A stretch of 64,000 nucleotides of DNA. Origin: Escherichia phage vB_EcoM_FT. The notes below the pieces were generated by a model that worked only from the letters and a program-made list of their open reading frames with translations, had not been told where the DNA came from and ran no database searches. The stretch lies in sequence record MT682710.1. One strand, written 5' to 3'. The position numbers and the translations under genes are program-made. Of this stretch, positions 20,508 to 43,001 are shown piece by piece (the stretch's first letter is position 1; each line of letters opens with the position of its first letter).

Positions 20508-20701
20508 TTTGAATGCTCTATAATTAATTTTAAAGCTTCTTCACTGACAAAAATTTCGTCAGGACCTTCTATAACTTCAACCATATGAAGTTGATTAGTT
20601 AAGAGCTCACACACGAGCTCTTTGTTATAATCTTTAAATAGCTGGTCAATACGTTTCTTATGGGCTTTCTTGAGCTGGCGTTTATTTAAACTAGCCATCA
20701 A
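20504..20701 (-). CDS. hypothetical protein (soc.2 position)
   Basis: 65-aa ORF. Confidence 0.5.
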   Translation of the reverse strand: MMASLNKRQLKKAHKKRIDQLFKDYNKELVCELLTNQLHMVEVIEGPDEIFVSEEALKLIIEHSK

Positions 20702-21216
20702 TAACCTCGGTCTTGACGAGCGAAGTTTTCAGCATTTTTCAGATAATAAAGTTTAAAGATTTCTTCAGCCGACATTCCAAGAGCAATAAATTTATTCATG
20801 AAAAAGTGAAATTGATCAATCAGTTCAAATTTAATTTCAAGCTGATCTTCGGGAGATAAATCTTGAATTTTCTTGGATTGCATTTCAGAATAACGTTTCT
20901 TCCAAGGTTTCCATACAGCAGAAGCTTCTTTTTCACCATTACTCATACCACCAAGAGAAGTATATAGCTCGCGAGTTTCATCTGCGATATAATCGTCTTG
21001 GTTTCGCAACCAAGCAAGAACTTCTCCTGCAGTTTCAAGTGAATCAGGATGACGATTTGTTTCTGGCTTATCATTAGCCAAACGAATCTGTAAATGCCGC
21101 TGCATGTCAAGCATAACCTGCAATGGGTCAATACTGTGCATAATATACTCAGCATATGCACGATTTGCTTTATCAACACCTTCGATCAAATGAGCACATT
21201 CATTAAAGTGAGCCAT
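20698..21216 (-). CDS. 56: dCTP pyrophosphatase (gp56)
   Basis: ATG at 21216 (MAHFNECAHLIEGVDK) gives about 172 aa; recognised as T4 gp56. Confidence 0.85.
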   Translation of the reverse strand: MAHFNECAHLIEGVDKANRAYAEYIMHSIDPLQVMLDMQRHLQIRLANDKPETNRHPDSLETAGEVLAWLRNQDDYIADETRELYTSLGGMSNGEKEASAVWKPWKKRYSEMQSKKIQDLSPEDQLEIKFELIDQFHFFMNKFIALGMSAEEIFKLYYLKNAENFARQDRGY

Positions 21217-21276: not shown

Positions 21277-22616
<1,340 letters not shown>

Positions 22617-23934: not shown

Positions 23935-24099
23935 TTACTCTTCTTTTTCTTTAGATTCCTCTTTTTTCTTTTTAGGAATCTGTTCAGGACCTTTATTTAC
24001 TACAGCACCTGACGTTGTTCCAGTGGAGATATTTTCAGGATTACCACCTGAATCTCCAGCTACCATATCTTCTTTAATAAATTCTTTATATGTTTTCAT
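23935..24099 (-). CDS. hypothetical Lys/Glu-rich small protein (61.1 position)
   Basis: hand-translated 54-aa ORF MKTYKEFIKEDMVAGDSGG...; coordinates approximate. Confidence 0.4.
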   Translation of the reverse strand: MKTYKEFIKEDMVAGDSGGNPENISTGTTSGAVVNKGPEQIPKKKKEESKEKEE

Positions 24100-24100
24100 A

Positions 24101-24727
24101 TTAACCTCTATTCATAAAAGCATTAAAAATTTGGTCATCAATAGAAACATCTACTTTAGACTGTTTTTCTGATGGTAATTCATATCCACATATTACAATT
24201 TTGTGATCAATATCAAAATACACAGAAGCAATATGATTAATGATGTTTTCAGTAAAGTCTAAATCAACATCAATATCTTTTTGACCACAGCCCAAAGGAT
24301 AAATAATGCGAGTAATTCGATTATCTTTAACAAAGATTCCACCGACATACTCTGTGCTGCGTTTAAAGTCTACACGCCAACGAAATGAAAAATATTCAGG
24401 CTCTTTATGAGCTCTGCTCATAGGACACAACGAGTAACTAGAATAAGAGATGTCAAATCCTACGCCTTCAATATGAGCCAAAGTATCATGATTAAACCAA
24501 TTATAATCGTACGCCAAATCCATTAGATTATAATATGTAAAAGGCACCGGATTAACGTCATTAATCACAAGCATGTAATTAGCAACTGCTATAATTTCAT
24601 TGTTTTTAACGAATACAAACCGTGATTGATGCGAATGACCTGGACCCGCGTTTTCACGATTAATGATATAACACTGGGCACCTTTATATTTGTATGTATC
24701 TTTGCACTTGTGCATTTGATAGAGCAT
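24101..24727 (-). CDS. hypothetical protein at 61.2 position (possible AdfA-like anti-DarT factor)
   Basis: 208-aa ORF; positional equivalence to T4 61.2 only. Confidence 0.5.
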   Translation of the reverse strand: MLYQMHKCKDTYKYKGAQCYIINRENAGPGHSHQSRFVFVKNNEIIAVANYMLVINDVNPVPFTYYNLMDLAYDYNWFNHDTLAHIEGVGFDISYSSYSLCPMSRAHKEPEYFSFRWRVDFKRSTEYVGGIFVKDNRITRIIYPLGCGQKDIDVDLDFTENIINHIASVYFDIDHKIVICGYELPSEKQSKVDVSIDDQIFNAFMNRG

Positions 24728-25020
24728 TATTCACCTACCACTTCAGCGATGATATTTTTATTATTAAAGTTTTTATCGCAATACAGAACATAATTATACT
24801 GCATTACACCACCAGACTTAAGCTGTTTTTGCACTTCAGCTTTCATTTCGGGGCGATCGCGCTCAACGATATTCATAATATCTGCTTCAATTTGAGTTTC
24901 AACTTCAGTCTGATCAGCAGTCATAGACCATTCGCACAAATCTTTATCATAACCTGCCATAGCAGGCTGAGCAGCACAAGAAGCTAAAGCAAAAATTGTA
25001 GCAAAGATAAATTTTTTCAT
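24727..25020 (-). CDS. sp: Spackle (periplasmic superinfection-exclusion protein)
   Basis: ATG at 25020 gives 97 aa with signal peptide MKKFIFATIFALASCAAQPAMA and GAGGAG RBS. Confidence 0.8.
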   Translation of the reverse strand: MKKFIFATIFALASCAAQPAMAGYDKDLCEWSMTADQTEVETQIEADIMNIVERDRPEMKAEVQKQLKSGGVMQYNYVLYCDKNFNNKNIIAEVVGE

Positions 25021-25081
25021 GATTAATCTCCTCAGTAGTTTATGTTTATATAGTATCTCAATTTCCAATAAAAGTAAACAG

Positions 25082-25381
25082 TTATTTTAAAACTTTTGCA
25101 TAATCACATGTTACAAACTGTTTCTCTAGCTTAACGATCTTACGAAAATACCTTTTACACTGACGAATCTGTCGCTTCGTAGGACGTACAGCAAACTTAA
25201 TAAATTCCACTCGACCAAATGGAGGACTTTCTTCTGCTGGAATATCTAGCACCAATTCCCACGTATCTGCAATAAGTGCTTTGAATTGCGTATTTTTCCT
25301 GACGTTATACGGAGTAGGTTTAAATAAAACAATATGCATATTATCCTCGGCAATCCACTTCACACACTTTCTTGTCATCAA
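25082..25381 (-). CDS. hypothetical basic protein (61.4 position; possible TifA-like)
   Basis: 99-aa ORF between sp and dmd. Confidence 0.45.
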   Translation of the reverse strand: MMTRKCVKWIAEDNMHIVLFKPTPYNVRKNTQFKALIADTWELVLDIPAEESPPFGRVEFIKFAVRPTKRQIRQCKRYFRKIVKLEKQFVTCDYAKVLK

Positions 25382-25523
25382 TGAAAGCTTTAACTAATGC
25401 TTTATTAACTTCAGCATATTGAGTAGTAGCCCATTGAACGTCATCTTTCATCATTGTGGTTTCTTTAGTAAACATGCTTTCATTCTTAAACCACCCCATA
25501 AAAACTACCTTTACCAATTCCAT
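25341..25523 (-). CDS. dmd: Dmd antitoxin (inhibitor of RnlA/LsoA)
   Basis: 60-aa ORF immediately downstream of gene 41, as in T4. Confidence 0.75.
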   Translation of the reverse strand: MELVKVVFMGWFKNESMFTKETTMMKDDVQWATTQYAEVNKALVKAFIDDKKVCEVDCRG

Positions 25524-25552
25524 AACAATCTCCTCATTTAACCAACAAGACT

Positions 25553-25582
25553 ACTATACCATAGTCTTGTCAGCTTGTAAAC
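25553..25582 (-). promoter_or_regulatory. early promoter upstream of dmd (GTTTAC-N18-TATAGT)
   Basis: -35 abuts gene 41 stop. Confidence 0.5.
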
Positions 25583-27009
25583 TAAAATTTTAATTCATTT
25601 GCCAAAGCATCTAACTGAGCTCGAGTCGATTCGTTTCTTTGATAGCGATTCTGCTCAGCCTGAATCTGCTGTGAACCTGCTACTTCGTTCACTTCAGTTG
25701 GAGTAGAATCTTGTTCAATTTCTACCCATTTCTGATTTCCTTTTTGAACACCCATCAAAAACTTATTCCATTTATTCTTATCACCATATCGTGATTTGAT
25801 TTGCTTAATGAGTTGTTGTTCAGCAGCTGCTAACTCCTCGGTTTCAATGACCGCAAGCATAAAATCAGCTGTTGCTGGAAGACCAGCAGATTCTGCAATA
25901 TCGCTCATGTTAACATCAGAAGAATCCCAAGCCTGTTTACCAACCTGTGCTGCAGTCCAAAGAACAGTTTCAGTTTCAACAGCCAGAGCACGCAATTCTT
26001 CTGCGATGGCTTTAACAGTTGTGTAACTATTTTCTGAATAAACTCTAATGCGGCAAGATTTACAAATACCTAGATAGTCAACAATAATGATTGTTGGAAC
26101 AAAATTCTTCTTGAGCTTTAATTCATTTAAAAGCGACCGAAATGTATTAGCATCTGCTCCACCAGTAGGATACTGTTTAACGATTAAACGACCGAGAGTA
26201 GATTTCTCACGCCATTTTTCCATTTTTCCTTTATACTCAGCGTAAGAAATATGCCCATCATCAATGTCATCAAGAGAAACATCAAGCATATTAGCATCAA
26301 TACGCTTAGCACAGACTTCTTCTGCCATTTCCATGGAAATGTAAAGAACATTATGTCCGAGCTGCAAATAATCTGCTGCCAATGAACACAGACCTAATGA
26401 CTTACCAACGTTAACGCCAGCCATTAAAACGTTCAGTGTTCCAGTTTCAGCTCCGCCTTTCGTAATTTTGTTTAGAATTCTGAGTTTAAACGGAACTTTA
26501 CGAGCTTTATTCATATAAGATAGCCAGCGTGCTTCGTAGTCATCCATCCAATCATGACCAACGTAACTATCAAATGAAATTGATAATGCTTGGCGCATGA
26601 TGTCAGGAATAGCACCTACATCTGGCATTTTCTTATTTCGTTTTTCCGGAGGAAGCTCAGCATTAGTTTGAATTTCGATTATTTTAGACGTAGCATTAAA
26701 CATCGCCCTTTGCTGAACATATTTTTCTGTTTCTTTTATTAACCAACTGTGGTCTTCCGGAGAATCAGCCAGTTTTGAAATAAGTGTTTTTACACCAGAA
26801 TATTCTGTTTCAGTAAATGAACTATTTTCTAATGCAACATTTAACGCATTAATAGATGGAACGCTATGATACTCATTGACATGAGATTTAATTAATTTGA
26901 ATGTATTTTTAGCTGGACCACTTTCAAAATATTCTGAATCCATATATGGCCAAACTTTTGAAAAATAAGCTTGATCAAATATAAGATGAGAAAGAATAAT
27001 TTCTACCAC
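25582..27009 (-). CDS. 41: replicative DNA helicase (gp41), DnaB-like
   Basis: 475-aa ORF; Walker A GVNVGKS; recognised as T4 gp41. Confidence 0.95.
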   Translation of the reverse strand: MVEIILSHLIFDQAYFSKVWPYMDSEYFESGPAKNTFKLIKSHVNEYHSVPSINALNVALENSSFTETEYSGVKTLISKLADSPEDHSWLIKETEKYVQQRAMFNATSKIIEIQTNAELPPEKRNKKMPDVGAIPDIMRQALSISFDSYVGHDWMDDYEARWLSYMNKARKVPFKLRILNKITKGGAETGTLNVLMAGVNVGKSLGLCSLAADYLQLGHNVLYISMEMAEEVCAKRIDANMLDVSLDDIDDGHISYAEYKGKMEKWREKSTLGRLIVKQYPTGGADANTFRSLLNELKLKKNFVPTIIIVDYLGICKSCRIRVYSENSYTTVKAIAEELRALAVETETVLWTAAQVGKQAWDSSDVNMSDIAESAGLPATADFMLAVIETEELAAAEQQLIKQIKSRYGDKNKWNKFLMGVQKGNQKWVEIEQDSTPTEVNEVAGSQQIQAEQNRYQRNESTRAQLDALANELKF

Positions 27010-27018
27010 ACTTACTCC

Positions 27019-27381
27019 TTAAAAGAATTTAAACTTTTTCTTTGACCTTTTATTAAATGCATCTTGCAGTTGCATTGTAATACATTTTTCTACATGAGGA
27101 GCTAACTCAGCTTTTCTTTCTTGGTCAAGAACAGCAAAGTCCATTACAACCTTTCCATCAACCCAATCTAATTTTGTCACATACACAATGTGTGTAGAAC
27201 CATCTTCTAGTTTAATGACAATCTCCTGGATAACATTTTCCATGGCAGATTTAATTATCTTAAGAGATTCATTAAAAAGACGTTCTTTTCTTTCTTCTTC
27301 CCCCTCCGAAGAGGGGGATTCATCGATAATTTCTAGATCTAAGTCTAAATCATCTTTATTCATTAAATTCTTCCATATCAC
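27019..27381 (-). CDS. 40: head vertex assembly chaperone (gp40)
   Basis: 120-aa acidic ORF between uvsX and 41. Confidence 0.65.
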   Translation of the reverse strand: MIWKNLMNKDDLDLDLEIIDESPSSEGEEERKERLFNESLKIIKSAMENVIQEIVIKLEDGSTHIVYVTKLDWVDGKVVMDFAVLDQERKAELAPHVEKCITMQLQDAFNKRSKKKFKFF

Positions 27382-28537
27382 TTAACTGCTCGAGGTCAGT
27401 TTCTAAATCAGCAGCTGATTTACTTTTACTTTCTAGAGATTTAAATTTTTCAACCTTTGAGTTAATCAATTCATCAACTTCAGCTTCAACAATTTCATTA
27501 CTATCAATAGCACCTAACTGATAAGCACGTTTAATAGCATCTCGGAATGGTTGATGCTTAAATAAAGGACCCCAGAATGTAGTGCAGTTGGTATCTTTTG
27601 CACGCCAAGATTTTTCTTCGCGAATCATCTCGCCGGTTTCTTCATCAAGAAATTCACGAGCATACCAGCCATTTTTAGGTTTTACCACGAATCCTAATTC
27701 TAGAGCCATATCTAACAATCCAGAATAAGGATCGATACCACCGTCAAATTTAACATCAATAAAGAATTTACTTTTTTCTTTAACGGTACGAGATTTTTCT
27801 ACATTTAGAACAAATTGATACCCCTGAAGATCAGAACCATCTTTAATCTGGCGCTTACCGATAATGAATACAGTATCAGCCGAATACATTACGCCTGTAC
27901 CACCTGTCATCACGGTTTTACTAAACATTTCAATTGTTTCAATTGTGTGGTTAACCGCAACACATGGAATGTTTTTAATACTAAAATAAGGAGTAACAAT
28001 ACGGAATAATGACTTCAGTGATTTAGCACGAGTCATATCTGCCACAGATTTTTCATTCAAGGCATCTTCCGTTTCTTTCTTAGAAGCCATATTACCGATT
28101 GAGTCGATGAATACAATAACTTTTTCACCGCGCTCAATAGCTTCAAGCTGATTCACCATATCAATTTTCAGCTGTTCAACTGACTGGATTGGTGTATGAA
28201 TTACACGTTCCGGATCAACTCCCATGGATCGCAAATAAGCTGGAGTAATACCAAATTCGCTATCATAGAATAAACAAACCGCATCAGGATATTTGTTCAA
28301 ATACGCCGCAACCATAGTCAAAGACATATTTGATTTAAAGTGTTTAGAAGGACCTGCAAAAATGGTTAAACCAGACTGCATTCCACCATCAATCGCACCA
28401 GAAATAGCGATATTGAGCATTGGGATTTTTGTACGGATTACATCCTTTTCATTAAAGAATTTAGATGTAGTCAGCTCAGCAGTCATTTTAGAAGTGGAAG
28501 CTTTAATCAAACGGGATTTTAAATCTGCAATAGACAT
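27356..28537 (-). CDS. uvsX: UvsX recombinase (RecA-like)
   Basis: 393-aa ORF; Walker A GPSKHFKS; recognised as T-even UvsX. Confidence 0.95.
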   Translation of the reverse strand: MSIADLKSRLIKASTSKMTAELTTSKFFNEKDVIRTKIPMLNIAISGAIDGGMQSGLTIFAGPSKHFKSNMSLTMVAAYLNKYPDAVCLFYDSEFGITPAYLRSMGVDPERVIHTPIQSVEQLKIDMVNQLEAIERGEKVIVFIDSIGNMASKKETEDALNEKSVADMTRAKSLKSLFRIVTPYFSIKNIPCVAVNHTIETIEMFSKTVMTGGTGVMYSADTVFIIGKRQIKDGSDLQGYQFVLNVEKSRTVKEKSKFFIDVKFDGGIDPYSGLLDMALELGFVVKPKNGWYAREFLDEETGEMIREEKSWRAKDTNCTTFWGPLFKHQPFRDAIKRAYQLGAIDSNEIVEAEVDELINSKVEKFKSLESKSKSAADLETDLEQLSDMEEFNE

Positions 28538-28614
28538 TCATTTTTTCCATAGGCATCATTATATTTTCCTCACTGGTTAAAGATAGAGTAATTATAACAC
28601 AATAAATTTAGGCA

Positions 28615-29463
28615 TTAATCAACTGCTATTGGATGAATAGCATTAAACTTATGAAATGCTTCTGATTTTTCTTTACGCGAAACACACATGCGAAGAACCT
28701 TTAATGGCTCATCTTCTTCACCCAACGATTTTCGTTTTTCAATATTAGAAGTTTTCCAACGAGCTTGCTCTGGAAACTCTCTATTGATTTGTTCAAGCGC
28801 TCTATTATGTTTAGAATTACTACGAATTGAACTACACCCACCGGGAGCGTGTGATTTTCCAGATACAACTAGATATTTGAACAAGGCCAAATGCGGATAA
28901 CCTTGATTAATTAAATTGAGAAATGCATACATATCTTCACATAAATCAATTTTTCCATACCCAATTTGTTCTGTCGTAAGTTTTCCGAGGTCATACCATG
29001 TATTCGTGAATCCATATGAGTTTTCACGATAATTACCCCAAGATGAAGTAATTTTAAAAATTGGTAGACGAGCATGACCGTGATAATACCCGCAATCCAT
29101 AGCATCTTCAACGTATTGAATCAATTCGTAGAATTGTTCACGGGTTAATTGATTAATTTTATCTACGCGCCGTTTATCGTCTCTCTTTCGTATTGAACTC
29201 ATACGAATAGTAGTATCATCATCAATCATCCAGATTCGTTGACCTGCATACATATCAGTAATTGCTTTACGAGTACCTGCAATTCCATTAACATCATCAG
29301 GAATAGTTACAATTTTAGCTCTAGACCCATAAGCATCATAATAAGCTTTTTCTTCGTGTTCACGCACTACAATATGTGGTTCATAATCAGTCGGAAACAT
29401 ATCAAGGGCAGAAACTGCCCCTACACGTTGATAGCTTGGAATTACGAATTGAATCATTTCCAC
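28615..29463 (-). CDS. GT-A fold glycosyltransferase at the beta-gt locus (candidate beta-glucosyl-HMC-alpha-glucosyltransferase)
   Basis: 282-aa ORF with DxD motif (WMIDDDT); occupies T4 beta-gt position but does not resemble the T4 beta-gt sequence as I recall it. Confidence 0.6.
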   Translation of the reverse strand: MEMIQFVIPSYQRVGAVSALDMFPTDYEPHIVVREHEEKAYYDAYGSRAKIVTIPDDVNGIAGTRKAITDMYAGQRIWMIDDDTTIRMSSIRKRDDKRRVDKINQLTREQFYELIQYVEDAMDCGYYHGHARLPIFKITSSWGNYRENSYGFTNTWYDLGKLTTEQIGYGKIDLCEDMYAFLNLINQGYPHLALFKYLVVSGKSHAPGGCSSIRSNSKHNRALEQINREFPEQARWKTSNIEKRKSLGEEDEPLKVLRMCVSRKEKSEAFHKFNAIHPIAVD

Positions 29464-30194
29464 TCACCGTTATAATCTTTTTTCACAATATGAGTTTCGC
29501 CAGTATTCCACCAATGATCAACCAAGTAAAAATGACGAGAATATACATGAAGACTTCCAACATTCCATATAATAGAACCTGCTTTATACTGACGAGTTGA
29601 ATCGCCTGCATTCAAATCAGATACTAATTTATCTAATACGTATTTTTGCCATGCATAATCATTACGGAATCCGAAGACCACGTCATTTGAGCGCATGCTT
29701 ACTACTGCATTGACTTTCTTATCACGAATCAGGTACTGTACTGTATTCGTACACATGAAATCTGACATACCATCTTTATTGTAGTCAAATTGCATGGATG
29801 GACGAGTATAAATCATGATACCACGTCGAGAATCAGGATTTTGACCAAGTTCAGCTAAACACATATCATACTGAGCATAGTTATCTTCTGACCAGATAGC
29901 CCAACCATAATTCGAGTTAATTTCGCCTTTAGAAGATGCTACCTGCTGCCAAATCTTCGGTGTTTCACCTGGAATATCTTTAACAAACAAGCTCTTAGAT
30001 TTATACCATTCAAGTTCACGCTGAATGTATTCATCATTAAGAGCGCCAAAAATAAACGGTTCATCTGCTACAAATGATGCGCCAATAATTTCAATAGTTT
30101 TAACACCAGTTTTATCAATTACGAAATCTTTTTCCTTTAATGCAAGACCCAAATCAAGACGGATTTCTTCAACTGTCATAGAGTCACTAATCAT
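29454..30194 (-). CDS. 42: dCMP hydroxymethylase (gp42)
   Basis: 246-aa ORF; thymidylate-synthase-like; T4 gp42 length. Confidence 0.9.
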   Translation of the reverse strand: MISDSMTVEEIRLDLGLALKEKDFVIDKTGVKTIEIIGASFVADEPFIFGALNDEYIQRELEWYKSKSLFVKDIPGETPKIWQQVASSKGEINSNYGWAIWSEDNYAQYDMCLAELGQNPDSRRGIMIYTRPSMQFDYNKDGMSDFMCTNTVQYLIRDKKVNAVVSMRSNDVVFGFRNDYAWQKYVLDKLVSDLNAGDSTRQYKAGSIIWNVGSLHVYSRHFYLVDHWWNTGETHIVKKDYNGEWK

Positions 30195-30347
30195 TTAAAC
30201 CTCAATTGATACATTCATATTTAACTTGTAACAGTAATAAACCCCAACCTAAAATAATAGTTGGAATCATAAGAGGAACCGTTACACTATAGTATATACT
30301 TATTATAATCATCAAGATTAAAAGCAATGCTGTTATAATTTTGCTTT

Positions 30348-30599
30348 TCATTCCTTCTCTCTGATGATAATTACCTGATTTGGCTGTGCAGACTTTTTAG
30401 TTTCACCCGCAATTGACCAAATAAATGTAATAAACCAACCAATAATTGACCAGTTAAACAGTAAAGATGTGAAAAAGATTCCTACTGTCGATTTTGACCC
30501 ACGCATCAAGGCGATAAACCATGGAAGCATGTATATAATAATAGCCAACACACCTGAAACTAAAACCATAAAAATTGAACCTGCTACTAAAGTTTCCAT
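30348..30599 (-). CDS. imm: immunity protein Imm (superinfection exclusion)
   Basis: 83-aa two-TM ORF at T4 imm position. Confidence 0.8.
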   Translation of the reverse strand: METLVAGSIFMVLVSGVLAIIIYMLPWFIALMRGSKSTVGIFFTSLLFNWSIIGWFITFIWSIAGETKKSAQPNQVIIIREKE

Positions 30600-30606
30600 G
30601 TTTTCC

Positions 30607-30987
30607 TCACTTAGTCAAATTTTTTACACATGAATTATAAGAATTCACTACATACTCCATCGGAGCATTTTTACCAGTACGCCATTGGTAATTATTAGCC
30701 CAATTAGCCCAAAGCTCGGCGCAGTAGTTTTCAATTTTTTCTTCGCGTGTAATTACATCCGAATTACGATATGCTTGAGCAGATTCATCTGGACGAATAG
30801 CTTCGTCAAAATTCGCCTGCATTTGTTCGACTGTTTGCTTTGGAGCTTCTTTATAACACTTGACATTAGGATTATAAAATTTGCTTGAACAGTTTACAAT
30901 TTTTCCTACATCAGACTGATTTACTACCGGTCCTTGAGCTACACAACCAGTAAGACCTAATGCAATAACCAAAATAGCGATTTTCAT
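30607..30987 (-). CDS. putative lipoprotein (imm.1 position)
   Basis: 126-aa ORF with lipobox LTGC. Confidence 0.5.
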   Translation of the reverse strand: MKIAILVIALGLTGCVAQGPVVNQSDVGKIVNCSSKFYNPNVKCYKEAPKQTVEQMQANFDEAIRPDESAQAYRNSDVITREEKIENYCAELWANWANNYQWRTGKNAPMEYVVNSYNSCVKNLTK

Positions 30988-30997
30988 AATAATTTCC

Positions 30998-31234
30998 TCA
31001 AATGCAAGTAGTAATTACTCCAGTAGTGCTTATGCAGGTATTACCCATTTGCACACCTAAAGATCCATTTGTATTCACATGAAGATTATCATCAATTTTT
31101 GTTGATATTTTACCATTAGTGTGAATAACGGTGCTAGATTCAATCACAGGTTGAGTATCATTTTCAACACTAACAAATGGAACTGCTGCTAATGCAACTA
31201 AACAAACTGCTAAGCATCCCATAACAATTTTCAT
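30998..31234 (-). CDS. small secreted protein
   Basis: ATG at 31234 (MKIVMGCLAV) with GGAG RBS and early promoter upstream; N-terminal signal-like segment. Confidence 0.5.
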   Translation of the reverse strand: MKIVMGCLAVCLVALAAVPFVSVENDTQPVIESSTVIHTNGKISTKIDDNLHVNTNGSLGVQMGNTCISTTGVITTCI

Positions 31235-31269
31235 TTTATTCTCCAAATCCGTATTAGTTGATAGTTGTA

Positions 31270-31299
31270 TAGTACCATGGAAGAACAGTCTTGTAAACA
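31270..31299 (-). promoter_or_regulatory. early promoter (GTTTAC-N18-TACTAT), repeat-family copy
   Basis: shares about 50-bp core with copies at 3451, 55961, 58141. Confidence 0.55.
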
Positions 31300-31385
31300 G
31301 TTTTGTGAAAATTTTTTAGGGAATTCTAAAGGTCCAGAATCATCTGTTTTTCATAAGTATAGATTTATATTACTTGTATGAAAAA

Positions 31386-31401
31386 GGGACCCGGAGGTCC
31401 C
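31386..31401 (-). terminator. GC stem-loop downstream of gene 43
   Basis: gggacccggaggtccc. Confidence 0.5.
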
Positions 31402-31414
31402 TAGATTTATTCTA

Positions 31415-34111
31415 TCAGCCAAACAGGAAGTCTAACGAAGCTTTTTCTTCATAGTCCATACCAGCCGATTCACACATGCCTGCAAGCGGTTTAACAAACG
31501 ATTTTTGGAACAAAGTTGAGTAGTCAATCCAAGACAGTACGTCAGAACGAATTTCTTTTGGAAGTTCTGTACCCGACGGCCAAGCAATGCATTTGTCACC
31601 AAATGGATTTCCTTCACGCAATGGAAGAACCATTACTTTATTTCCATCCAAAATTGGAGCTACACCTAAACCGCTAACAGCTCGACGATAAGTTAGCACA
31701 CCACGAATATGGAACGGACATTTAAATCCTGGCCAACCTTTATCATCATATTTCGCTATATCGTTCGCAGTTTTTACTTCAGCAATAACTTTATAGTCAA
31801 GTTGACGATATTCTTTCTCGAAGTTCTTGTAATATTCTTGGACAGACTCTTCACCTTCCTGAAGAATACGACGAATACTTTCTTCGAGAGCTTCTTGGAC
31901 CGCTTTAGGCGTTGAACTCTGCTGAGTTTCCATACCCATGATTTTTAGATGTGGTTCAGCAAAACGCTTATCTTCCATATCATAAACGTTCAGAGCATAA
32001 CGCTTTTTCGCTTTCCAAAATCCACCAACGCCCTTTGAACCAAGTGGAGGGCAAGAAATAGCTTCACGGTCCATATGCATCAGATGCTCGCGGTTATTCA
32101 TATAATCACATAACTCACGATATGCAACATCAATCATAGGTTCCATCTTTTTCTTACCGAACTGATTCATGAATTCAACTAAATCGTTCTGCTCTTTGAA
32201 TCGGTCAAGACCAACTTTTTCAATAACTTTATCTACACAAACATATACCGAATCAGTATCACCTGCTGCAATGAAATCTTCGCCATTAGTTCCGCATACT
32301 TTATTCAGATATTCATTAATTTTACGAGCAATCCACTGAATACCAACTTGGCCGAAAATTGTGATAGCAGTAGCATTTCGCAAATCATAGTAACGGAAAT
32401 GAATATTACCAAGAGCACCATAAAGACTGTTAATAAGAATTTTACGGTTCAGCTGATTTGTGTTAGCAAGTGTAGCTGCTTTTTCACATTCCTCAATCAG
32501 ACTATTGAGAACAGATTCGGTGTAATTCGATAGTTCATTTAAGAAATCATCACTGAACTTAACATATCGTTCAACTTCTGGTTTAGTTGAACAGGACCCT
32601 GCGCCTTTCATAATAATCTTTTTAATAGCTTCGGCATTCATTTCTTCAGCGAACATTTTCTTTTTCCAATCTTTACGCTGGAAAAATACTTTAGCGATTT
32701 CCTTTGGAATGATACCTTCTTGATGCTTATCATACATCCATCCATTCGGAGAACAAGAATATTCATCGCTCGGTTTAGGAGCTGTTCCTGCGATATATTC
32801 ATGAATTGGATGAACTTTAAACTGTCCACGAATAGTCTCAGGACTAATGTTAACCTGACGAATAATGCTCGGATACAGAGACGTCAAGTCAAAACTCATA
32901 ATATATCGACGAGCAATTGGTTTAGGTTCAAATACAAATGCACCCGGAAAACTTTGTTTAACGTGCGAACCTTGTTGAGGAATAACCTTATGTTCACCTT
33001 TCAATGAGTTAAAAATAATAGCATCCCAAGTTTTAATAGGACTCATTACACCGGAAAAAGGCATTTTAGCGTAATAAGACATACTTAAAACTAGATCGAT
33101 AAACCCGCGAATTTTATCAATTGCTTGAACTGATTCTACGTCAATGATGTTATAACTAATGTATCGTTGATGATTAGTCTCACGAAGTTTATTAATAGGA
33201 CCGTCGTATGGTAATTTACCTTTTTTGGTTTCATGTTGAGCAACTGATTCCAAAGAGAATGACGGCAAATTAGTAAATGCGAATTTCTTATACAAATCTA
33301 AATAATCAAGAATAGATACGCCATCAATAGAATAAATTTCTTTGCTACCGTACACATTTTGAATTAGTTTAGATTTTACTCGACCGATTGGAGAGAAACG
33401 TTTCATACTGCGTTCACCGAGAACCATTTTAACGCGATTCATGATATACGGAACGTCAAATCCCTCAATATTCCAACCAGTAAAAATAGCAGGTCGTTTC
33501 TGTTCCCAAAGATTGATATATTCCATGAGCATATCACGCTCATTATCGAATGGCATATAAATTACTCGGTCAAGAATTTCTTGAGGAACTTCATCACCAC
33601 CTTCACAGTCAAGCTTAGCAGCTAACTTTGCATCCCATTTTGATACTGAACCGTACATTGAATTCAACAAATCAAAGACGTAAAAACGATCGTCAATTGA
33701 ATCATAATGAGTGATAGCATCAATTTCATATTCAGCTTTCATTGGGTCAGGAAATTTATCACCAGTAACCTCAATGTCACAGTTAGCTACACGAACAAAT
33801 TTTCGGTCATAAACAATTTCTGAACCATATGTATCACTGATATAAGCGAGTTTAAAATCGTTCATACCGAGAGCTTCGAGACCGATGTCTTCCATTCGTT
33901 TCATCCAATCTCGAGCATCTTTCATTGATGGAAATTTTTGAGGAGCGCAGTTTTTACCATAGATGTCTTTGTACTTTGACTCTTCCTTACAATGCCTAAA
34001 CATAGTTGGAAGATATTCTACTTCACGAGTACGTTCCTTTCCATTTTCATCAATATAACGTTCAACAATATTATTTCCGACTGTTTCAATAGAGATATAA
34101 AATTCTTTCAT
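31415..34111 (-). CDS. 43: DNA polymerase (gp43), family B
   Basis: 898-aa ORF; exonuclease and polymerase motifs (DTDS, YGDTDS-like); T4 gp43 length. Confidence 0.97.
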   Translation of the reverse strand: MKEFYISIETVGNNIVERYIDENGKERTREVEYLPTMFRHCKEESKYKDIYGKNCAPQKFPSMKDARDWMKRMEDIGLEALGMNDFKLAYISDTYGSEIVYDRKFVRVANCDIEVTGDKFPDPMKAEYEIDAITHYDSIDDRFYVFDLLNSMYGSVSKWDAKLAAKLDCEGGDEVPQEILDRVIYMPFDNERDMLMEYINLWEQKRPAIFTGWNIEGFDVPYIMNRVKMVLGERSMKRFSPIGRVKSKLIQNVYGSKEIYSIDGVSILDYLDLYKKFAFTNLPSFSLESVAQHETKKGKLPYDGPINKLRETNHQRYISYNIIDVESVQAIDKIRGFIDLVLSMSYYAKMPFSGVMSPIKTWDAIIFNSLKGEHKVIPQQGSHVKQSFPGAFVFEPKPIARRYIMSFDLTSLYPSIIRQVNISPETIRGQFKVHPIHEYIAGTAPKPSDEYSCSPNGWMYDKHQEGIIPKEIAKVFFQRKDWKKKMFAEEMNAEAIKKIIMKGAGSCSTKPEVERYVKFSDDFLNELSNYTESVLNSLIEECEKAATLANTNQLNRKILINSLYGALGNIHFRYYDLRNATAITIFGQVGIQWIARKINEYLNKVCGTNGEDFIAAGDTDSVYVCVDKVIEKVGLDRFKEQNDLVEFMNQFGKKKMEPMIDVAYRELCDYMNNREHLMHMDREAISCPPLGSKGVGGFWKAKKRYALNVYDMEDKRFAEPHLKIMGMETQQSSTPKAVQEALEESIRRILQEGEESVQEYYKNFEKEYRQLDYKVIAEVKTANDIAKYDDKGWPGFKCPFHIRGVLTYRRAVSGLGVAPILDGNKVMVLPLREGNPFGDKCIAWPSGTELPKEIRSDVLSWIDYSTLFQKSFVKPLAGMCESAGMDYEEKASLDFLFG

Positions 34112-34170
34112 AGATATTCCTTAGTTTATAGCCCGAGTTATTAGGCTCTTGATATATTATACTCCAAATA

Positions 34171-34186
34171 AGGGGCCGAAGCCCCT
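34171..34186 (-). terminator. GC stem-loop with UUCG-type tetraloop
   Basis: aggggccgaagcccct. Confidence 0.5.
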
Positions 34187-34189
34187 TGC

Positions 34190-34453
34190 TTAAATTAGTA
34201 CTATTTGTCGGTGAAAAATTGTCATTCCATCTGCATTAATTGACTTAACGACTGCGGTAAAGTGTTTTTGTTCTGGATGAATTAATTTTTGAAATTCTAC
34301 CTGAAATTTTAGTTGAAGGTTTTCTGGTAAATCAAAAAGTGTTTCTGTTGCAGAAAGATTATATTTTTCTTTAAGAGACGCCATGTATTCTTGCGGAGTT
34401 ATAGCAGTCATATTAATTACCAATCGTATATTTAGGAACGAGCTTCCATTCAT
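34190..34453 (-). CDS. hypothetical protein
   Basis: 87-aa track ORF overlapping regA 3' end; possibly shorter from internal Met. Confidence 0.3.
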   Translation of the reverse strand: MNGSSFLNIRLVINMTAITPQEYMASLKEKYNLSATETLFDLPENLQLKFQVEFQKLIHPEQKHFTAVVKSINADGMTIFHRQIVLI

Positions 34454-34781
34454 GTTTTTGTTTAAAAGAAATAACTCGGAAGTTATTAGTTAAATCTTTC
34501 ATAAAAGTTCTTTGACCAGGAACGATTTCAATCAGTCCCCAATCTTCTAACAGCCATGCAATCGAATCACGACGAACTTCATCTTCTTCTGTCATTTCAA
34601 CTTGGCGACCATCCATACGAAGCATTTCTTTAAAATGAACGATATAGTATAGTCCTTTTTTCTGAAGAATATGACAGGACTGATACAGAACTTTATCTTT
34701 ATTATTAGCAATTCCCATACGAGTCAAAGTTTCTTTTACTTTCAGAAAATCTTCAGGTTTTTTAAGAGTAATTTCAATCAT
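34413..34781 (-). CDS. regA: translational repressor RegA
   Basis: 122-aa ORF recognised as T4 RegA. Confidence 0.9.
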   Translation of the reverse strand: MIEITLKKPEDFLKVKETLTRMGIANNKDKVLYQSCHILQKKGLYYIVHFKEMLRMDGRQVEMTEEDEVRRDSIAWLLEDWGLIEIVPGQRTFMKDLTNNFRVISFKQKHEWKLVPKYTIGN

Positions 34782-34782
34782 T

Positions 34783-35346
34783 TTACCATTCCAATGCTAG
34801 TTTTTTGAGTTGTTTCTGTTCTTTTACGTTCTTAGTCACTTCTTTCAAAAAATCATCCGTGACTAAACCTTTTAGTTCTTTTAATACTAAAGGAAGTTTT
34901 CCATTTTTAGTAAGAATTGATTTATAGTTAATTGCATCATTTGTATTAACTTGATACCGTTTAGCAAGTAACTTAATAATCAATACTTCGGTGGAATCTT
35001 CAACCAGTTTTGCCCATTTACCATATCTTTTACCACGAGGAACTGCAGCCATCAGATAATTAAAATGAGCTTCATCACTTAAACCTGATCCAATTAAATT
35101 CATAGCATATACAGCTGGCATGCATTCAGGAAATTGTGATAATGCATTCTCAACCATGTATTTTGAATAATCTTTTTGAGCAATAGAGCATTTAGTTTTA
35201 TTATTAATAGCTCCAATTATTTCAAAAAATTCATTTTCAGCTTTTTCTTTAAAAGAATCAGCAGCGGATTGGACAGCTGTCCAATCTTTTGAATACCAAG
35301 CAACTTGATGCTCGTTTAATTGAATATCATCTTCAAATAAGCTCAT
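34783..35346 (-). CDS. 62: clamp loader small subunit (gp62)
   Basis: ATG at 35346 ([20 protein letters not shown]) gives 187 aa. Confidence 0.9.
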
Positions 35347-35347
35347 A

Positions 35348-36307
35348 TCACTTCCACTGCATTTCACATGCTAACTGAATGAAAAGATAAGCTAGATGCA
35401 ATTCCGTATTAGCTGCAATACCATGATACTGATTATTTTCGCCGACAATTTCGTACATACGAATAATACTTTGCGGAGTTACGCGTGTATAGATTTCTTC
35501 GGCAAGTTTACCCACGAACCACGAATAATCAGCTGCATATTTTGGTGCTAAAGCTCTGAGTTGTTTAACATCTTTATTTTTGAGAGACTCAAGAACATCA
35601 TCAATAGCACCACGATCGTTAGTAACCAGTGATAAAATACCAGCATCCAAAACACCTTTAGATGAATAACTATCGAGCTCGCCAATAGTTTTACGAAAAT
35701 CAGGAAAATTCTTTTTAACCAAAGCTGCTACAACTTTCATATCAGCTATAGCAATTCCTTCATGCTTACAGATTTCAGTCAATCGACGAATCATCTGCTT
35801 CATCATTTCAATTTTATCTTCATCGGTCGGTTGACCGAATGTAATAACTCGGCAGCGTGACTGAAGCGGTTTAATAATACCATCAATATTGTTAGCAGTA
35901 ATAATAATACTACAGTTTGAACTATAAGCTTCCATAAATGAACGAAGATGTCGCTGAGACTCTGCTAGCCCTGAACGGTCAAATTCATCAATAACGATTA
36001 CTTTTTGACGACCATCAAATGAAGCGGCGCTGGCAAAATTAGTCAAAGGACCGCGAACGAAATCAATTTTACAGTCTGATCCATTCACAAACATCATATC
36101 AGCATTTACATCATGACACAATGCTTTTGCTACAGTTGTTTTACCTGTTCCTGGAGAAGGAGAATGAAGAATAATATGTGGAATCTTACCTTTACTTGTA
36201 ATAGATTTAAAGGTTTCTTTATCAAAGGCGGGAAGAATACATTCATCGATAGTAGATGGACGATATTTCTGTTCAAGAATGTGTTCTTTTTCATTTACGG
36301 TAATCAT
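35348..36307 (-). CDS. 44: clamp loader large subunit (gp44), AAA+
   Basis: ATG at 36307 with GAGGAA RBS gives 319 aa; Walker A GTGKT. Confidence 0.95.
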
Positions 36308-36341
36308 AATTTCCTCATTCAAGTTTTAGTGTAAATTATAA

Positions 36342-36355
36342 AGGGCCGAAGCCCT
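36342..36355 (-). terminator. GC stem-loop with UUCG-type tetraloop between 45 and 44
   Basis: agggccgaagccct. Confidence 0.5.
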
Positions 36356-36358
36356 CTA

Positions 36359-37045
36359 TTAAAAATCGTGGGTAGAATCAGCTTCAAGAGCTACTACATA
36401 ATTCGCGTGTTCACCTTCAAATTTAGCAGCACCTTGTTTACCTTTTGCCCAGAGCAGAAGTTTATAATTTCCTGGTTGCATTTTCATATTTGCCATATTG
36501 ATAATGAAATTAAATGTATTTTCACCATCATAATCACCAAGAGTCAAAGAATATTTAACACGGGTCAGAGCAGAATCTTCTACTTTATTAAAACCGTTAA
36601 TTACGATTTTACCTTCTTTTACCGTGATAGCAATTGTATCAATTTGCAGACCACGAGATACACGCAACAGTTGTTGAAGGTCTTCAGCTTTAATTTCAGT
36701 AACAACAGATGCTACCGGGAATGGAATTGGTTTATTAGGAGCAACTACTGTACTCGGATCGGCTGCTGGCCAAAAAATTGTTGAGCGGGCATCAGCAATT
36801 TTAATATTTCCATCTTCTGACTGGGAAATTTCTGCATCATCATTAACTAGAGACAGAATACCGAGAAAACCGTTCAAATCGTAAATTGCTACATCAAAAT
36901 CAATAACGTCAGAAATATTTGCTTCCGCGTAAGTTGTACCATTAACTGCGCGAGTCATAATAAATTGACCGGATTTAAGCATAATACCAGAGTTAATAGT
37001 AGCGAAATTTTTGAGCAGAGCAGTAGTATCTTTAGACAGTTTCAT
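36359..37045 (-). CDS. 45: sliding clamp (gp45)
   Basis: 228-aa ORF recognised as T4 gp45. Confidence 0.95.
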   Translation of the reverse strand: MKLSKDTTALLKNFATINSGIMLKSGQFIMTRAVNGTTYAEANISDVIDFDVAIYDLNGFLGILSLVNDDAEISQSEDGNIKIADARSTIFWPAADPSTVVAPNKPIPFPVASVVTEIKAEDLQQLLRVSRGLQIDTIAITVKEGKIVINGFNKVEDSALTRVKYSLTLGDYDGENTFNFIINMANMKMQPGNYKLLLWAKGKQGAAKFEGEHANYVVALEADSTHDF

Positions 37046-37100
37046 GTAATTTCCTTCAATTCAAATGAGATTTAATTTTATAACTAATTTAATAAAGCAA

Positions 37101-37490
37101 TTAACGATTAAAATCAGCCGCAATTGTTTCCGCAACAATTTGAGCAGCAACAATTAGACGTTCATCTGCATTACCGCAATAATCATCTTCAAGACGTTCA
37201 CCACATGAAGTCATAATAAATTTAGCACCGGCGTTTAGGGATTCTGTAGTATGTTTGCGCATTAGTTCAATCCATTTATTACTTACTTCACGATCGATAG
37301 CTTCATAATACGCATGACGAGCAGGTGCAGATTTAATTTTGTTCTGAATAACTTCCATTGCGTTATCAGAAAGAGACAAAACCCATGCTCGACGAATTTT
37401 ATTTTGGTTTTGTGGATTTGATTCAGAACGCACGTGTTTTGGCTGAATATCTTTTACATCAACGTTATAATTCACAGTAATTTTAGTCAT
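37101..37490 (-). CDS. rpbA: RNA polymerase-binding protein RpbA
   Basis: 129-aa ORF directly upstream of gene 45 as in T4. Confidence 0.75.
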
Positions 37491-37499
37491 AATACACCT

Positions 37500-37688
37500 T
37501 TAGTCATAATAATCAGTAACAGTCCAAGCTTCATTTCTATTGGACATTATTTTTGTATATTCTGCTTTAAATGCATTCCTAAGCATAGATTCAGTAACTA
37601 TATGCTCTTCATTAGAAAAATTATTTCTCAGAATATATCGTTTTATTTCAGGAATAGTTAATAGATGCTGTCCAGTTGAATATTCCAT
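37500..37688 (-). CDS. hypothetical protein (45.2 position)
   Basis: 62-aa ORF. Confidence 0.5.
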   Translation of the reverse strand: MEYSTGQHLLTIPEIKRYILRNNFSNEEHIVTESMLRNAFKAEYTKIMSNRNEAWTVTDYYD

Positions 37689-37689
37689 G

Positions 37690-37740
37690 TTTTTCCTCCA
37701 TAGAGATTATACTCTAATAAATTAAAGCATAATCTCTTAT
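37690..37740 (-). promoter_or_regulatory. candidate middle (MotA-type) promoter
   Basis: minus strand ATGCTTTA then about 11-12 nt then TATAAT upstream of 37500..37688. Confidence 0.4.
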
Positions 37741-37743
37741 AAA

Positions 37744-39426: not shown

Positions 39427-39686
39427 AAAAGATTCCTTTTAATGTATCTTTTAGACCATTCTATCATATCATCATAATCTAAAAAGTATTCATCAAATTC
39501 AGCCATGCAAACAACACCTTGTGCTGCTTTTGATGTGATATAAATTATTCCAACATATCTAGAATCTTCTTCGGTATAATCAATATTTGCTATGAATTCA
39601 TCATTAATGTCAAATGTCGAAAACTTCACAGTATGCATCCTTAATACAAGATACAGCCATATCTCGTAATGATTTAGGCGTGTCAT
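39423..39686 (-). CDS. hypothetical protein (46.1/46.2 region)
   Basis: 87-aa ORF; overlaps next ORF in another frame, one of the two may be shorter. Confidence 0.4.
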   Translation of the reverse strand: MTRLNHYEIWLYLVLRMHTVKFSTFDINDEFIANIDYTEEDSRYVGIIYITSKAAQGVVCMAEFDEYFLDYDDMIEWSKRYIKRNLL

Positions 39687-39873
39687 TATCTAAAATGTTG
39701 AAGTTAAAAGATACAGCCCAGTCAGTGCAGACTGTAACCTTTTTAATACAATTATCTTCAACCTCTAGTGGTTCAAACCAATATTCAATAATTTCTTTAT
39801 GACCAATATCATCTTTTACTTCACATTCAAAATGCTGACTCATCACAACATTTTTAAATTCATCAAAAGTCAT
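39610..39873 (-). CDS. hypothetical protein (46.1/46.2 region)
   Basis: 87-aa ORF coupled to gene 47 stop. Confidence 0.45.
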   Translation of the reverse strand: MTFDEFKNVVMSQHFECEVKDDIGHKEIIEYWFEPLEVEDNCIKKVTVCTDWAVSFNFNILDNDTPKSLRDMAVSCIKDAYCEVFDI

Positions 39874-40889: not shown

Positions 40890-41050
40890 ATATCAAGAAC
40901 CGTCATTGAAATGCAAAATAAAATTATTGAAATAAACCCATCTGGTGTGCTAAAGAACCCAATCCAACATGCTCTAGTGAAAAGATAAAGCGCGAGAAAA
41001 AGTATCACATATCCAAGAAATATCATTATATCAAACTCCGTATAAAGCTA

Positions 41051-41066
41051 AAGGGCCGAAGCCCTT
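41051..41066 (-). terminator. GC stem-loop with UUCG-type tetraloop downstream of a-gt
   Basis: aagggccgaagccctt followed by T-run on minus strand. Confidence 0.55.
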
Positions 41067-42268
41067 TATTTTGTAATAATGTCAAACTGTTCTTTAAAAC
41101 AGAAGCTTGAATCTTGGTGCTGATACAAAAATTCATATGCTTTTTCTCGCTCACGGTCATAAAGAGCTCGGTCAGATGACAATTCTTTAATACGCTCGAA
41201 TGTTGATTCCATGTCATTTTCATCAAACCAAATGATACCGCTATCATGTGAGGTCAAAGGAGTATTATCAACACGGAATTTTAAATTATCACCCGTTGAT
41301 TTCCAGAAAACAGGAATTGTACCGCAAGCACCTAATTCAAGATGAGTATATTCGAGTGAGCGTTGTAAGTATTTCTGGTTAAGTTTACTCAACTGATATC
41401 CAAAGCCAGATTTACTCATTCGTTCAAGCATTTCACTATTAATATAACAATCTAGGATTTGTGCCGGTTGATTCGGCGTGAGATTCATTTTATCGATCTC
41501 ACGATTACCGTAATATTCATACGGAATACCTTTTTCCTTAATTGCAATAAAAGCAGGGGAACGTTCAAGACCTTCCATTACAGTGGATTTACCAGCAGGT
41601 TTTAAGAATTTTTCATGAAAATCAAACATCTGATAAAAACCTTTCCATGTAGTCGTACGACCAATCCAACGGTTGATGTTCATGTTAATTTCAGAAACAT
41701 CTTTCCAATAAGTTGACCGAACCTTCGCAATATCCATAGGAGGCTGAAAGTTATATACTGTTGGTGCTTCTTCAATATCATCAAACAGAGAAACAGTTTC
41801 TGGATACCATTCTTTCATCAGAACTTTATTAAAATCACCATTATCAGAATGGCTAAAAATAACATCAGCTCGACGAACAGTTTCTTCTAATCCCAAATTT
41901 CGACGCAAAGAAAGAACAGAATGATCATGCTGATAAACTACAACACGAATAGAAGGTTTAATATTATCTAAAAGTTTTTTATAGTTATTAATCGTGGCTT
42001 CTTGAACGGAAGTAGCAGGAACAGAATTAATAATTAGAATATCACAATCATTTACCAGCTTAAGTGCTTTATCGTATTCTTTAGCTAAAATAACTGGAAT
42101 TGAAAATGATTTGTGGTCATGAGAACTTGTACGAGTAAATGATTTATCTTTAGCATAAACCAAAGTTACTTCATGACCATTTTTAATAAACCAATCACGC
42201 TGCTCAAGAGAAAATTTAGTTACACCGCAACCTTCAAGACCTCGAGCCATAAAAATACATACTTTCAT
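41066..42268 (-). CDS. a-gt: DNA alpha-glucosyltransferase
   Basis: 400-aa ORF recognised as T4 alpha-gt. Confidence 0.9.
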   Translation of the reverse strand: MKVCIFMARGLEGCGVTKFSLEQRDWFIKNGHEVTLVYAKDKSFTRTSSHDHKSFSIPVILAKEYDKALKLVNDCDILIINSVPATSVQEATINNYKKLLDNIKPSIRVVVYQHDHSVLSLRRNLGLEETVRRADVIFSHSDNGDFNKVLMKEWYPETVSLFDDIEEAPTVYNFQPPMDIAKVRSTYWKDVSEINMNINRWIGRTTTWKGFYQMFDFHEKFLKPAGKSTVMEGLERSPAFIAIKEKGIPYEYYGNREIDKMNLTPNQPAQILDCYINSEMLERMSKSGFGYQLSKLNQKYLQRSLEYTHLELGACGTIPVFWKSTGDNLKFRVDNTPLTSHDSGIIWFDENDMESTFERIKELSSDRALYDREREKAYEFLYQHQDSSFCFKEQFDIITK

Positions 42269-42320
42269 TTAATATCCTCTTTGTTTTGGTTTATTTTACC
42301 AAAAATTTATAAAGCAATAT

Positions 42321-42336
42321 AGGAGCCGAAGCTCCT
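42321..42336 (-). terminator. GC stem-loop with UUCG-type tetraloop
   Basis: aggagccgaagctcct. Confidence 0.5.
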
Positions 42337-42526
42337 ATCCGCATAATACGCCATACAGAGGCTCATTAGAACTTCTAAATTTTATGCGCTTATATGTTAT
42401 AGTTCCTTCTGCTTTAGCTTTATCGTAAGACTCTTGAAAGCGTCTCATCATTTCTACTTTAGAGGAACGAATTTTATTATAATCTATTTCAGAAGTCTGG
42501 TGTTCATCTTTCATAACTGCCACCAT
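42335..42526 (-). CDS. hypothetical protein
   Basis: 63-aa ORF. Confidence 0.45.
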   Translation of the reverse strand: MVAVMKDEHQTSEIDYNKIRSSKVEMMRRFQESYDKAKAEGTITYKRIKFRSSNEPLYGVLCG

Positions 42527-42717
42527 TTTTTAACTTGATAAGAATCAACCCACACTTTCATATTAGGGTCTGCTCTTACAATAGGAGGATTAACTTCTTT
42601 AATTGAACTATCATGGTATTCTTTTTCAGAAATTTTCACACAAAGATGACCATTCAAAGATTCAGTAAATCCTGCATTAATTTTAAGACGCTTGAATTTT
42701 ACGTGTGTAAGCATCAA
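42511..42717 (-). CDS. hypothetical protein
   Basis: 68-aa ORF. Confidence 0.45.
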   Translation of the reverse strand: MMLTHVKFKRLKINAGFTESLNGHLCVKISEKEYHDSSIKEVNPPIVRADPNMKVWVDSYQVKKWWQL

Positions 42718-43000
42718 TCATATCCTCAATCTGCGATCTAGTAGTCTTCCAAAGAATACTGATGAGTTCATCGTTATATGGCTGTTTTAGAATATCCCGA
42801 CTTTTCTTGATAGCATATTCGTATTGAGCAAAATTATTATTTTCAGCCGCAATCTGAGCGTGCTTATAAAGACGATTCAGTTCGCGTTTATTTTTAGACA
42901 ATAACTTATTTGCTTTTCTTTCTGCTTCAAGACGGTTCTTTTCTTCAATAGAAGAAATAAGCTTTTCCACTTCATCATTAATTTCGGGTTTATCAGTCAT
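42683..43000 (-). CDS. hypothetical protein
   Basis: 105-aa ORF. Confidence 0.5.
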   Translation of the reverse strand: MTDKPEINDEVEKLISSIEEKNRLEAERKANKLLSKNKRELNRLYKHAQIAAENNNFAQYEYAIKKSRDILKQPYNDELISILWKTTRSQIEDMIDAYTRKIQAS

Positions 43001-43001
43001 A

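Follow-up and report, generated by a model that had tools for sequence, protein, structure and literature searches.

The question raised by this locus is which enzyme occupies the slot between uvsX and gene 42, where T4 carries segA and b-gt, and which sugar modification follows from it. The window that we analysed is a stretch of 64,000 nucleotides (64 kb of a ~168-kb genome) from Escherichia phage vB_EcoM_FT (MT682710.1). A sequence-only reading had placed a GT-A fold glycosyltransferase in this slot, in the T2/T6 arrangement in which a second enzyme adds glucose onto alpha-glucosyl-hmC; its statement that T4 carries segA and beta-gt there agrees with the T4 annotation. We consider the ORF, with a probability of about 0.96, to be an orthologue of the T2/T6-type ba-gt gene, the product of which makes gentiobiosyl-hmC.

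The ORF listing of the window contains the reported ORF of 282 aa (28615..29463), a mechanical one on the minus strand with a GTG start at 29463, with uvsX (27356..28537, minus strand, 90% identical to T4 UvsX) and gene 42 (encoding dCMP hydroxymethylase, 29454..30194, minus strand) as its neighbours. Its 5' end reads GTG-GAA-ATG-A, with the ATG at 29457..29455 and a Shine-Dalgarno-like GGTGA ~7 nt 5' of that ATG. The CDS is annotated as 843 nt (280 aa) in the records of T2, BGP, EL, Geo, Solly, CP, TB37 and Some. In view of the ATGA junction with gene 42, the GGTGA element and the 843-nt CDS of the relatives, the product most likely has 280 aa (28615..29457), starting at the ATG rather than at the GTG. 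The ATGA overlap also implies translational coupling and co-transcription of ba-gt with the hydroxymethylase gene. The features of the locus are the following:

28615..29457, minus strand: ba-gt (ggt, TAGT), beta-glucosyl-HMC-alpha-glucosyltransferase CDS (280 aa plus stop), assigned by Pfam, PHROG, identity to T6/T2/BGP and GT-A fold
29454..29457, minus strand: ATGA overlap of the ba-gt start with the gene 42 TGA stop (29456..29454), from the sequence and the ORF list
29454..30194, minus strand: gene 42, dCMP hydroxymethylase, makes the hm-dCMP precursor; 96% identical to T4 gp42
28526..29471, no strand: segment of 946 bp to which blastn aligned no T4 nucleotide sequence

A promoter and terminator scan of 28300..30500 returned no more sites than shuffled controls. 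The single terminator-like match in this interval is a G+C-rich hairpin (GGGGCAG-TTT-CTGCCC, 29403..29423, minus strand) in ba-gt codons 12-18, which is kept in all alleles examined; shuffled sequence also yields one such match. On the other side of gene 42, between that gene and imm, lies a very hydrophobic ORF of 49 aa (30202..30351, minus strand), which BGP and related records annotate. The same ORF exists in T4 (L001:7221-7373; 2/49 residues differ), in an unannotated 153-nt gap of NC_000866.

Nucleotide homology to T4 (blastn) runs through uvsX and breaks off at position 28525 of the window, 12 nt short of the 5' end of that gene; it starts again at 29472 within gene 42, 18 nt from the 3' end of the latter. 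The 946-bp segment stands in for the 1941-bp segA plus b-gt segment of T4. By tblastn no homologue of T4 segA or b-gt was found within the 64-kb window (best E 1.4 and 1.6), and the ba-gt protein has no detectable similarity to T4 beta-gt (BLASTP best E=4.1), which bears out the earlier impression that the two are dissimilar. The homing-endonuclease genes segA (beside b-gt in T4) and mobB (beside a-gt in T4) are both absent, a tblastn search of the 64-kb window with T4 MobB having given no match, and spacers of 77 nt (28538..28614) and 66 nt (42269..42334) are left at the two sites. Upstream of uvsX the spacer has one and the same sequence in Solly, T6, T2 and the window; it includes a TATAAT that follows TGCCTAAA, an element resembling a MotA box.

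The identity of the ORF follows from its relatives. PHROG 842 ('beta-glucosyl-HMC-alpha-glucosyltransferase') matched it with E=1.4e-88 and tblastn detected a homologue in 688 of 50,697 phage records, which rules out a chance ORF. In 474 of these 688 records the homologue is at least 90% identical and adjoins the dCMP hydroxymethylase gene, a common label among the matches listed being beta-glucosyl-HMC-alpha-glucosyltransferase; ~200 further records (60-80% identity) belong to Klebsiella, Enterobacter and other T4-like phages. The protein is 97% identical to that of T2 and 96% to that of T6 over 280 aa, at the same locus, and it equals BGP_052 in 280/280 residues. The position between uvsX and 42 is shared with T2, T6, BGP, EL, Geo, Solly, CP, TB37 and Some. 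Over window positions 24000-44000 the nearest genome is that of Escherichia phage vB_Eco_BGP (98.2%); Geo and EL come next. Across window 10041-55653 the only large indel relative to BGP is a stretch of ~310 bp that BGP has in addition (BGP_060, 'Phage protein'; L004:14146-14456) at window position ~24100, in the gene 61.x region.

The one Pfam match of the ORF was to PF20691, TAGT (TET-associated glycosyltransferase), with 39.1 bits against a gathering cutoff of 27.5 and with ORF residues 5-209 aligned to positions 2-205 of the 205 in the profile; identity to distant TAGT members is 20-30%. No TET/JBP-like 5-methylpyrimidine dioxygenase is adjacent to the ORF, the neighbour being the thymidylate-synthase-family gp42. 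Membership by homology stands without an oxygenase, since ThyS-associated members of the family are known (bioRxiv 10.1101/2023.12.21.572611) and the name fits the founders only.

Two homologue searches provided 49 usable sequences, down to ~15-20% identity. A single-sequence AlphaFold model (pLDDT 43) was discarded and the 49-sequence alignment was used instead, giving a model with a pLDDT of 92.3 and a pTM of 0.90. The single Rossmann-like alpha/beta/alpha domain of this model matches solved GT-A structures; a GT-A fold, sister to GT2, had already been published for the T6 protein (PMC13216743). A sequence search of the PDB detected no solved structure of the ba-gt family. The motif WMIDDDT, from which the sequence-only reading had derived the GT-A assignment, corresponds to residues 76-82 (280-aa numbering). 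Its three aspartates, D79-D80-D81, come directly after strand 74-78 of the model and are, together with R11 and R63, invariant in all 49 family sequences. Three motifs of the protein can be placed on the DNA:

29215..29223, minus strand: DxD (DDD) motif, GAT GAT GAT, D79-D80-D81, putative metal/nucleotide-sugar binding site (sequence, alignment)
29425..29427, minus strand: R11 (CGT) in the N-terminal IPSYQR motif, counterpart of the GT2 'IPTYNR' nucleotide-binding motif; invariant in the family, with His in T2
28933..28938, minus strand: 'ED' motif, GAA GAT, E174-D175, candidate catalytic base (alignment)

D175 does not vary among the 10 sequences of an alignment of closer homologues, and E174 hardly does. 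When the family profile was run against the PDB sequences, a single marginal match emerged, to the GT2 beta-1,3-glucosyltransferase AvpGT (9jma, E=0.09), in which IPSYxR is aligned to IPTYNR, R63 to Arg, DDD to DDD and eDyyF to EDWDF, the ED part weakly. The order R...DDD...EDY/F is the pattern of phage GT-A DNA glycosyltransferases (bioRxiv 10.1101/2023.12.21.572611). From the model and these motifs we infer that ba-gt would be a GT2-like inverting GT-A enzyme that depends on a divalent cation and uses an acidic catalytic base; inversion is suggested by the stereochemistry, as a UDP-alpha-Glc donor gives a beta(1->6) product. The ORF falls outside the GT-B family of T4 beta-glucosyltransferase on sequence similarity and on fold.

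In T-even phages gp42 and dCTPase make hmC replace C in the phage DNA. Besides gene 42, the window contains two genes that act in the same pathway:

41066..42268, minus strand: alpha-gt, DNA alpha-glucosyltransferase (GT-B), makes the alpha-glucosyl-hmC acceptor; 395/400 residues identical to T4, Pfam AGT E=1.7e-258
20698..21216, minus strand: gene 56 homologue (dCTPase/dUTPase), keeps unmodified dCTP out of DNA; assigned by position, collinear with BGP_067 'dCTP pyrophosphatase'

The T4-like alpha-gt that had been pointed out is thus indeed there, on the minus strand, and it is identical to the alpha-gt of BGP. With alpha-gt present, beta-gt without a match in the 64-kb window, the same locus and 96-97% identity to the T2 and T6 proteins, the proposed T2/T6 arrangement holds. 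In the related Durham Tequatrovirus genomes, BGP among them, a DNA beta-GT gene was not found either (PMC13390438). After replication, alpha-gt attaches glucose from UDP-glucose to hmC through an alpha linkage. In the mechanism that we propose, ba-gt would then take another glucose from UDP-alpha-glucose and join it to the 6-OH of the first in beta(1->6) linkage, giving gentiobiosyl-hmC. In this enzyme, DDD (79-81) would bind the divalent cation together with the diphosphate of UDP, the nucleotide would be bound by R11 and R63, and E174/D175 would activate the acceptor hydroxyl as a base.

The product has been determined in close relatives. [quoted passage not shown] As BGP has an identical ba-gt and an identical alpha-gt, the virion DNA of the present phage is expected, by analogy, to contain ~20% hmC, ~40% alpha-glucosyl-hmC, ~40% gentiobiosyl-hmC and no beta-glucosyl-hmC, probably in the same 1:2:2 ratio. 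The acceptor specificity that we assign rests on the T2, T6 and BGP data, because other TAGT members glycosylate hmC directly.

Those other members lend some interest to the view that the ORF is a functional substitute for T4 beta-gt, glucosylating bare hmC and not extending alpha-glucosyl-hmC: the locus is syntenic with that of beta-gt, and the wider TAGT / GT-A phage family contains enzymes that sugar 5hmC directly (bioRxiv 10.1101/2023.12.21.572611). However, BGP, with the same protein, lacks beta-glucosyl-hmC and has ~20% of bare hmC left (PMC13390438), and in T6 without ba-gt the alpha-glucosyl-hmC stays and only gentiobiosyl-hmC is lost (PMC11078745), the mutant DNA containing solely alpha-glucosyl-hmC (PMC11078745; delta-g-gt in PMC13160076). 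A direct hmC glucosyltransferase is therefore very improbable. Even smaller is the chance that the ORF is a decayed or inactive remnant. Laboratory T6 stocks with lesions in ba-gt do occur (an amber at codon 10 in MH550421 and DDD to DD in AP018814), from which it follows that loss of the gene is tolerated in the laboratory; the frame in the window, however, is intact, every family-invariant residue is present and the identical protein is found in a phage (BGP) that makes 40% gentiobiosyl-hmC (PMC13390438). The use of another sugar by the enzyme is ruled out by the BGP nucleoside data together with the T6 deletion data. The T2/T6-type ba-gt reading agrees with all of these measurements, and the gentiobiosyl product that had been predicted from the gene arrangement is the one measured in BGP and lost in the T6 deletion mutants.

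The consequence for defence that had been anticipated, a changed sensitivity to modification-dependent systems, is documented and differs between systems. DNA with gentiobiosyl-hmC resists the Brig1 glycosylase in vitro, while DNA of T6 delta-ba-gt is a Brig1 substrate in vitro and the mutant phage is more Brig1-sensitive (PMC11078745). The BapA glucosidase deglucosylates T6 delta-g-gt DNA and not T6 DNA (PMC13160076). GmrSD, on the other hand, targets both glucosyl-hmC stereoisomers as well as the gentiobiosyl form (PMC13216743). Gentiobiosyl-hmC would thus provide a partial shield against defences that recognise alpha-glucosyl-hmC (Brig1 in vitro, BapA/Brig3), with persisting sensitivity to GmrSD-type enzymes. 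By setting the DNA sugar pattern, ba-gt determines the sensitivity to Brig1, BapA/Brig3 and GmrSD/BrxU-type enzymes, and this pattern also governs the response to CRISPR and restriction tools for phage engineering. The practical value of the assignment is predictive; the understanding of hypermodification gains nothing new from it.

Another point concerns the alleles of ba-gt and the DNA composition of the phages that carry them. Relative to the window allele, which is that of BGP, EL and Geo, the allele of Solly and TB37 differs at seven residues (V50I, I89M, K95R, R97C, I101V, S202A and H203Q), and CP and Some have the Solly/TB37 allele with 1-2 further changes. The DNA of Solly and TB37 consists for ~one third of hmC and for two thirds of gentiobiosyl-hmC, with a trace of alpha-glucosyl-hmC. 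For T2 the classic composition is 25:70:5, gentiobiosylation being 5% in T2 versus 72% in T6. The T2 allele differs from that of Solly/TB37 solely by R11H and P251S, and the 45 nt 5' of the ba-gt start are the same in the window, Solly and T2. Some has a T2-type alpha-gt allele and nonetheless shows full conversion. R11H is present in both T2 records (L003:7283-8125 and L006:3286-4128), at an arginine that is invariant in the 49 TAGT-family sequences. A search of 50,697 phage records for the His11 codon in its sequence context gave seven T2 records and SV76 only; in a sparse sample of IMG/VR contigs three had the Arg11 pattern and none the His11 pattern.

Since R11 is family-invariant and part of the GT2-type N-terminal nucleotide-binding motif, and since T2 otherwise has only P251S relative to Solly/TB37, R11H is a plausible cause of the low gentiobiosylation in T2. 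For the intermediate BGP-type phenotype the seven-residue difference is a candidate too, but a weaker one than R11H is for the phenotype of T2. It would make the window allele a partial-activity variant, its seven substitutions allowing the conversion of only about one in two alpha-glucosyl sites, which we regard as possible, though doubtful. It is in line with this that the allele of the 1:2:2 phages (BGP, EL, Geo) and that of the ~1:0:2 phages (Solly, TB37) are seven residues apart, with the 45 nt 5' of the gene, including the ribosome-binding site, identical in the window and Solly, and that residues 202-203 belong to a loop, probably flexible and modelled with low confidence, which directly precedes the conserved PGGCSxxR segment. 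Nevertheless, the correlation between allele and composition is confounded by phylogeny, as there are two clades only, and the BGP group differs elsewhere too, for instance in the presence of dam (PMC13390438). In addition, none of the seven positions is conserved in the family (49-sequence alignment), and differences in expression timing, UDP-glucose supply and the alpha-gt allele are entangled alternatives.

The broader idea that the extent of gentiobiosylation in T-even phages is set largely by natural ba-gt alleles, in three states (full, window/BGP and T2 hypomorph), is put forward tentatively, with the odds against it. If true, the 'full' allele (Solly, TB37, T6-like) would leave ~two thirds of the cytosines gentiobiosylated, the window/BGP allele (V50, I89, K95, R97, I101, S202, H203) would give a mixed ~1:2:2 genome and the T2 R11H hypomorph would explain the difference of 5% versus 72% between T2 and T6. 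The window allele would then represent a tuned, bet-hedging modification state, beyond being 'the T6 enzyme'. The table of alleles and phenotypes offers no more than a modest starting point for studies of structure and function in an enzyme family without a solved structure.

The two T6 records call for a separate remark. In AP018814 (L002:7135-7974) an in-frame 3-nt deletion reduces the invariant DDD to DD, and in MH550421 (L005:3138-3980) CAG has become TAG, the amber at codon 10, with the CDS annotated from a downstream start. Either these are sequencing errors or laboratory T6 stocks differ in their ba-gt status, a matter of importance to experiments that assume 72% gentiobiosylation.

We also noted two other loci in the window. 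An ORF of 186 aa (22056..22616, minus strand) abuts dam (21277..22056, minus strand), with one base shared between its stop and the dam ATG. PHROG 8706, a group of unknown function, includes this ORF, which matches BGP_065 at 100% identity and is probably the 'restriction enzyme-like' gene that was called exclusive to Geo, EL and BGP (PMC13390438). Contrary to such exclusivity, the ORF was found in 163 phage records, including T2 (99%). In Pfam it matches the restriction endonuclease DpnII weakly and below threshold (E=0.0045; 16.8 bits, cutoff 23). Its product may be a GATC-related nuclease that partners Dam. The other locus, an insertion of ~230 bp relative to T4 (window 30988..31220), lies between imm.1 and gene 43 and is shared by BGP, Solly, CP, TB37 and Some. 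Its ORF (30998..31246, minus strand) encodes 78-82 aa with a hydrophobic, signal-peptide-like N-terminus and has no Pfam match; T2 has an ORF of similar size, RB51ORF048, at this site.

When compared with known systems, ba-gt shares with T4 beta-gt the genomic slot, the UDP-glucose donor and the beta linkage (inverting), but T4 beta-gt has a GT-B fold (PDB 1JG7, as cited in PMC13216743) instead of the GT-A fold found here, uses bare hmC instead of alpha-glucosyl-hmC as its acceptor and is accompanied by the homing endonuclease gene segA. The cellular GT2-type inverting GT-A enzymes AvpGT (9jma), TarP (6h1j), RmlT (8bz4) and SpsA (1h7l) are 7-16% identical to ba-gt and act on lipid-linked glycans or teichoic acid, whereas the ba-gt acceptor is DNA. 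The PF20691 TAGT / GT-A DNA glycosyltransferases of Pyle et al. have the GT-A fold and the R...DDD...ED(Y/F) motifs in common with it. In the TET/5mYOX-associated pathways, however, 5hmC is made on the DNA by a methyltransferase and a TET-like oxygenase, unlike in the ba-gt phage, where hmC comes from the nucleotide pool (gp42), and most TET-associated members sugar the base hydroxymethyl directly, whereas the acceptor of ba-gt is the sugar on the base.

The closest systems are those of T2, T6 and BGP. The T2 and T6 genes were reportedly cloned by Winkler and Rueger in 1993, and the enzyme activity has been known since the early 1960s (Kuno & Lehman 1962, as cited in PMC13216743). The ba-gt genes of T2 and T6 (ggt, g-gt) resemble that of the window in length, uvsX-42 locus, ATGA junction, partner alpha-gt and absence of beta-gt. 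They differ from it by nine substitutions in T2 and eleven differences in T6 (AP018814), the window having R11, which T2 has not, and being free of the DDD to DD deletion and the amber codon of the two T6 records. The gene is an already characterised, ordinary gene of hundreds of T4-like phages that has been re-examined in several papers of 2024-2026. Nearest of all is BGP_052, 'glucosyl transferase', of vB_Eco_BGP (OZ035849.1; also in EL and Geo), a phage that is a distinct isolate but in which both this protein and alpha-gt are 100% identical to those of the window.
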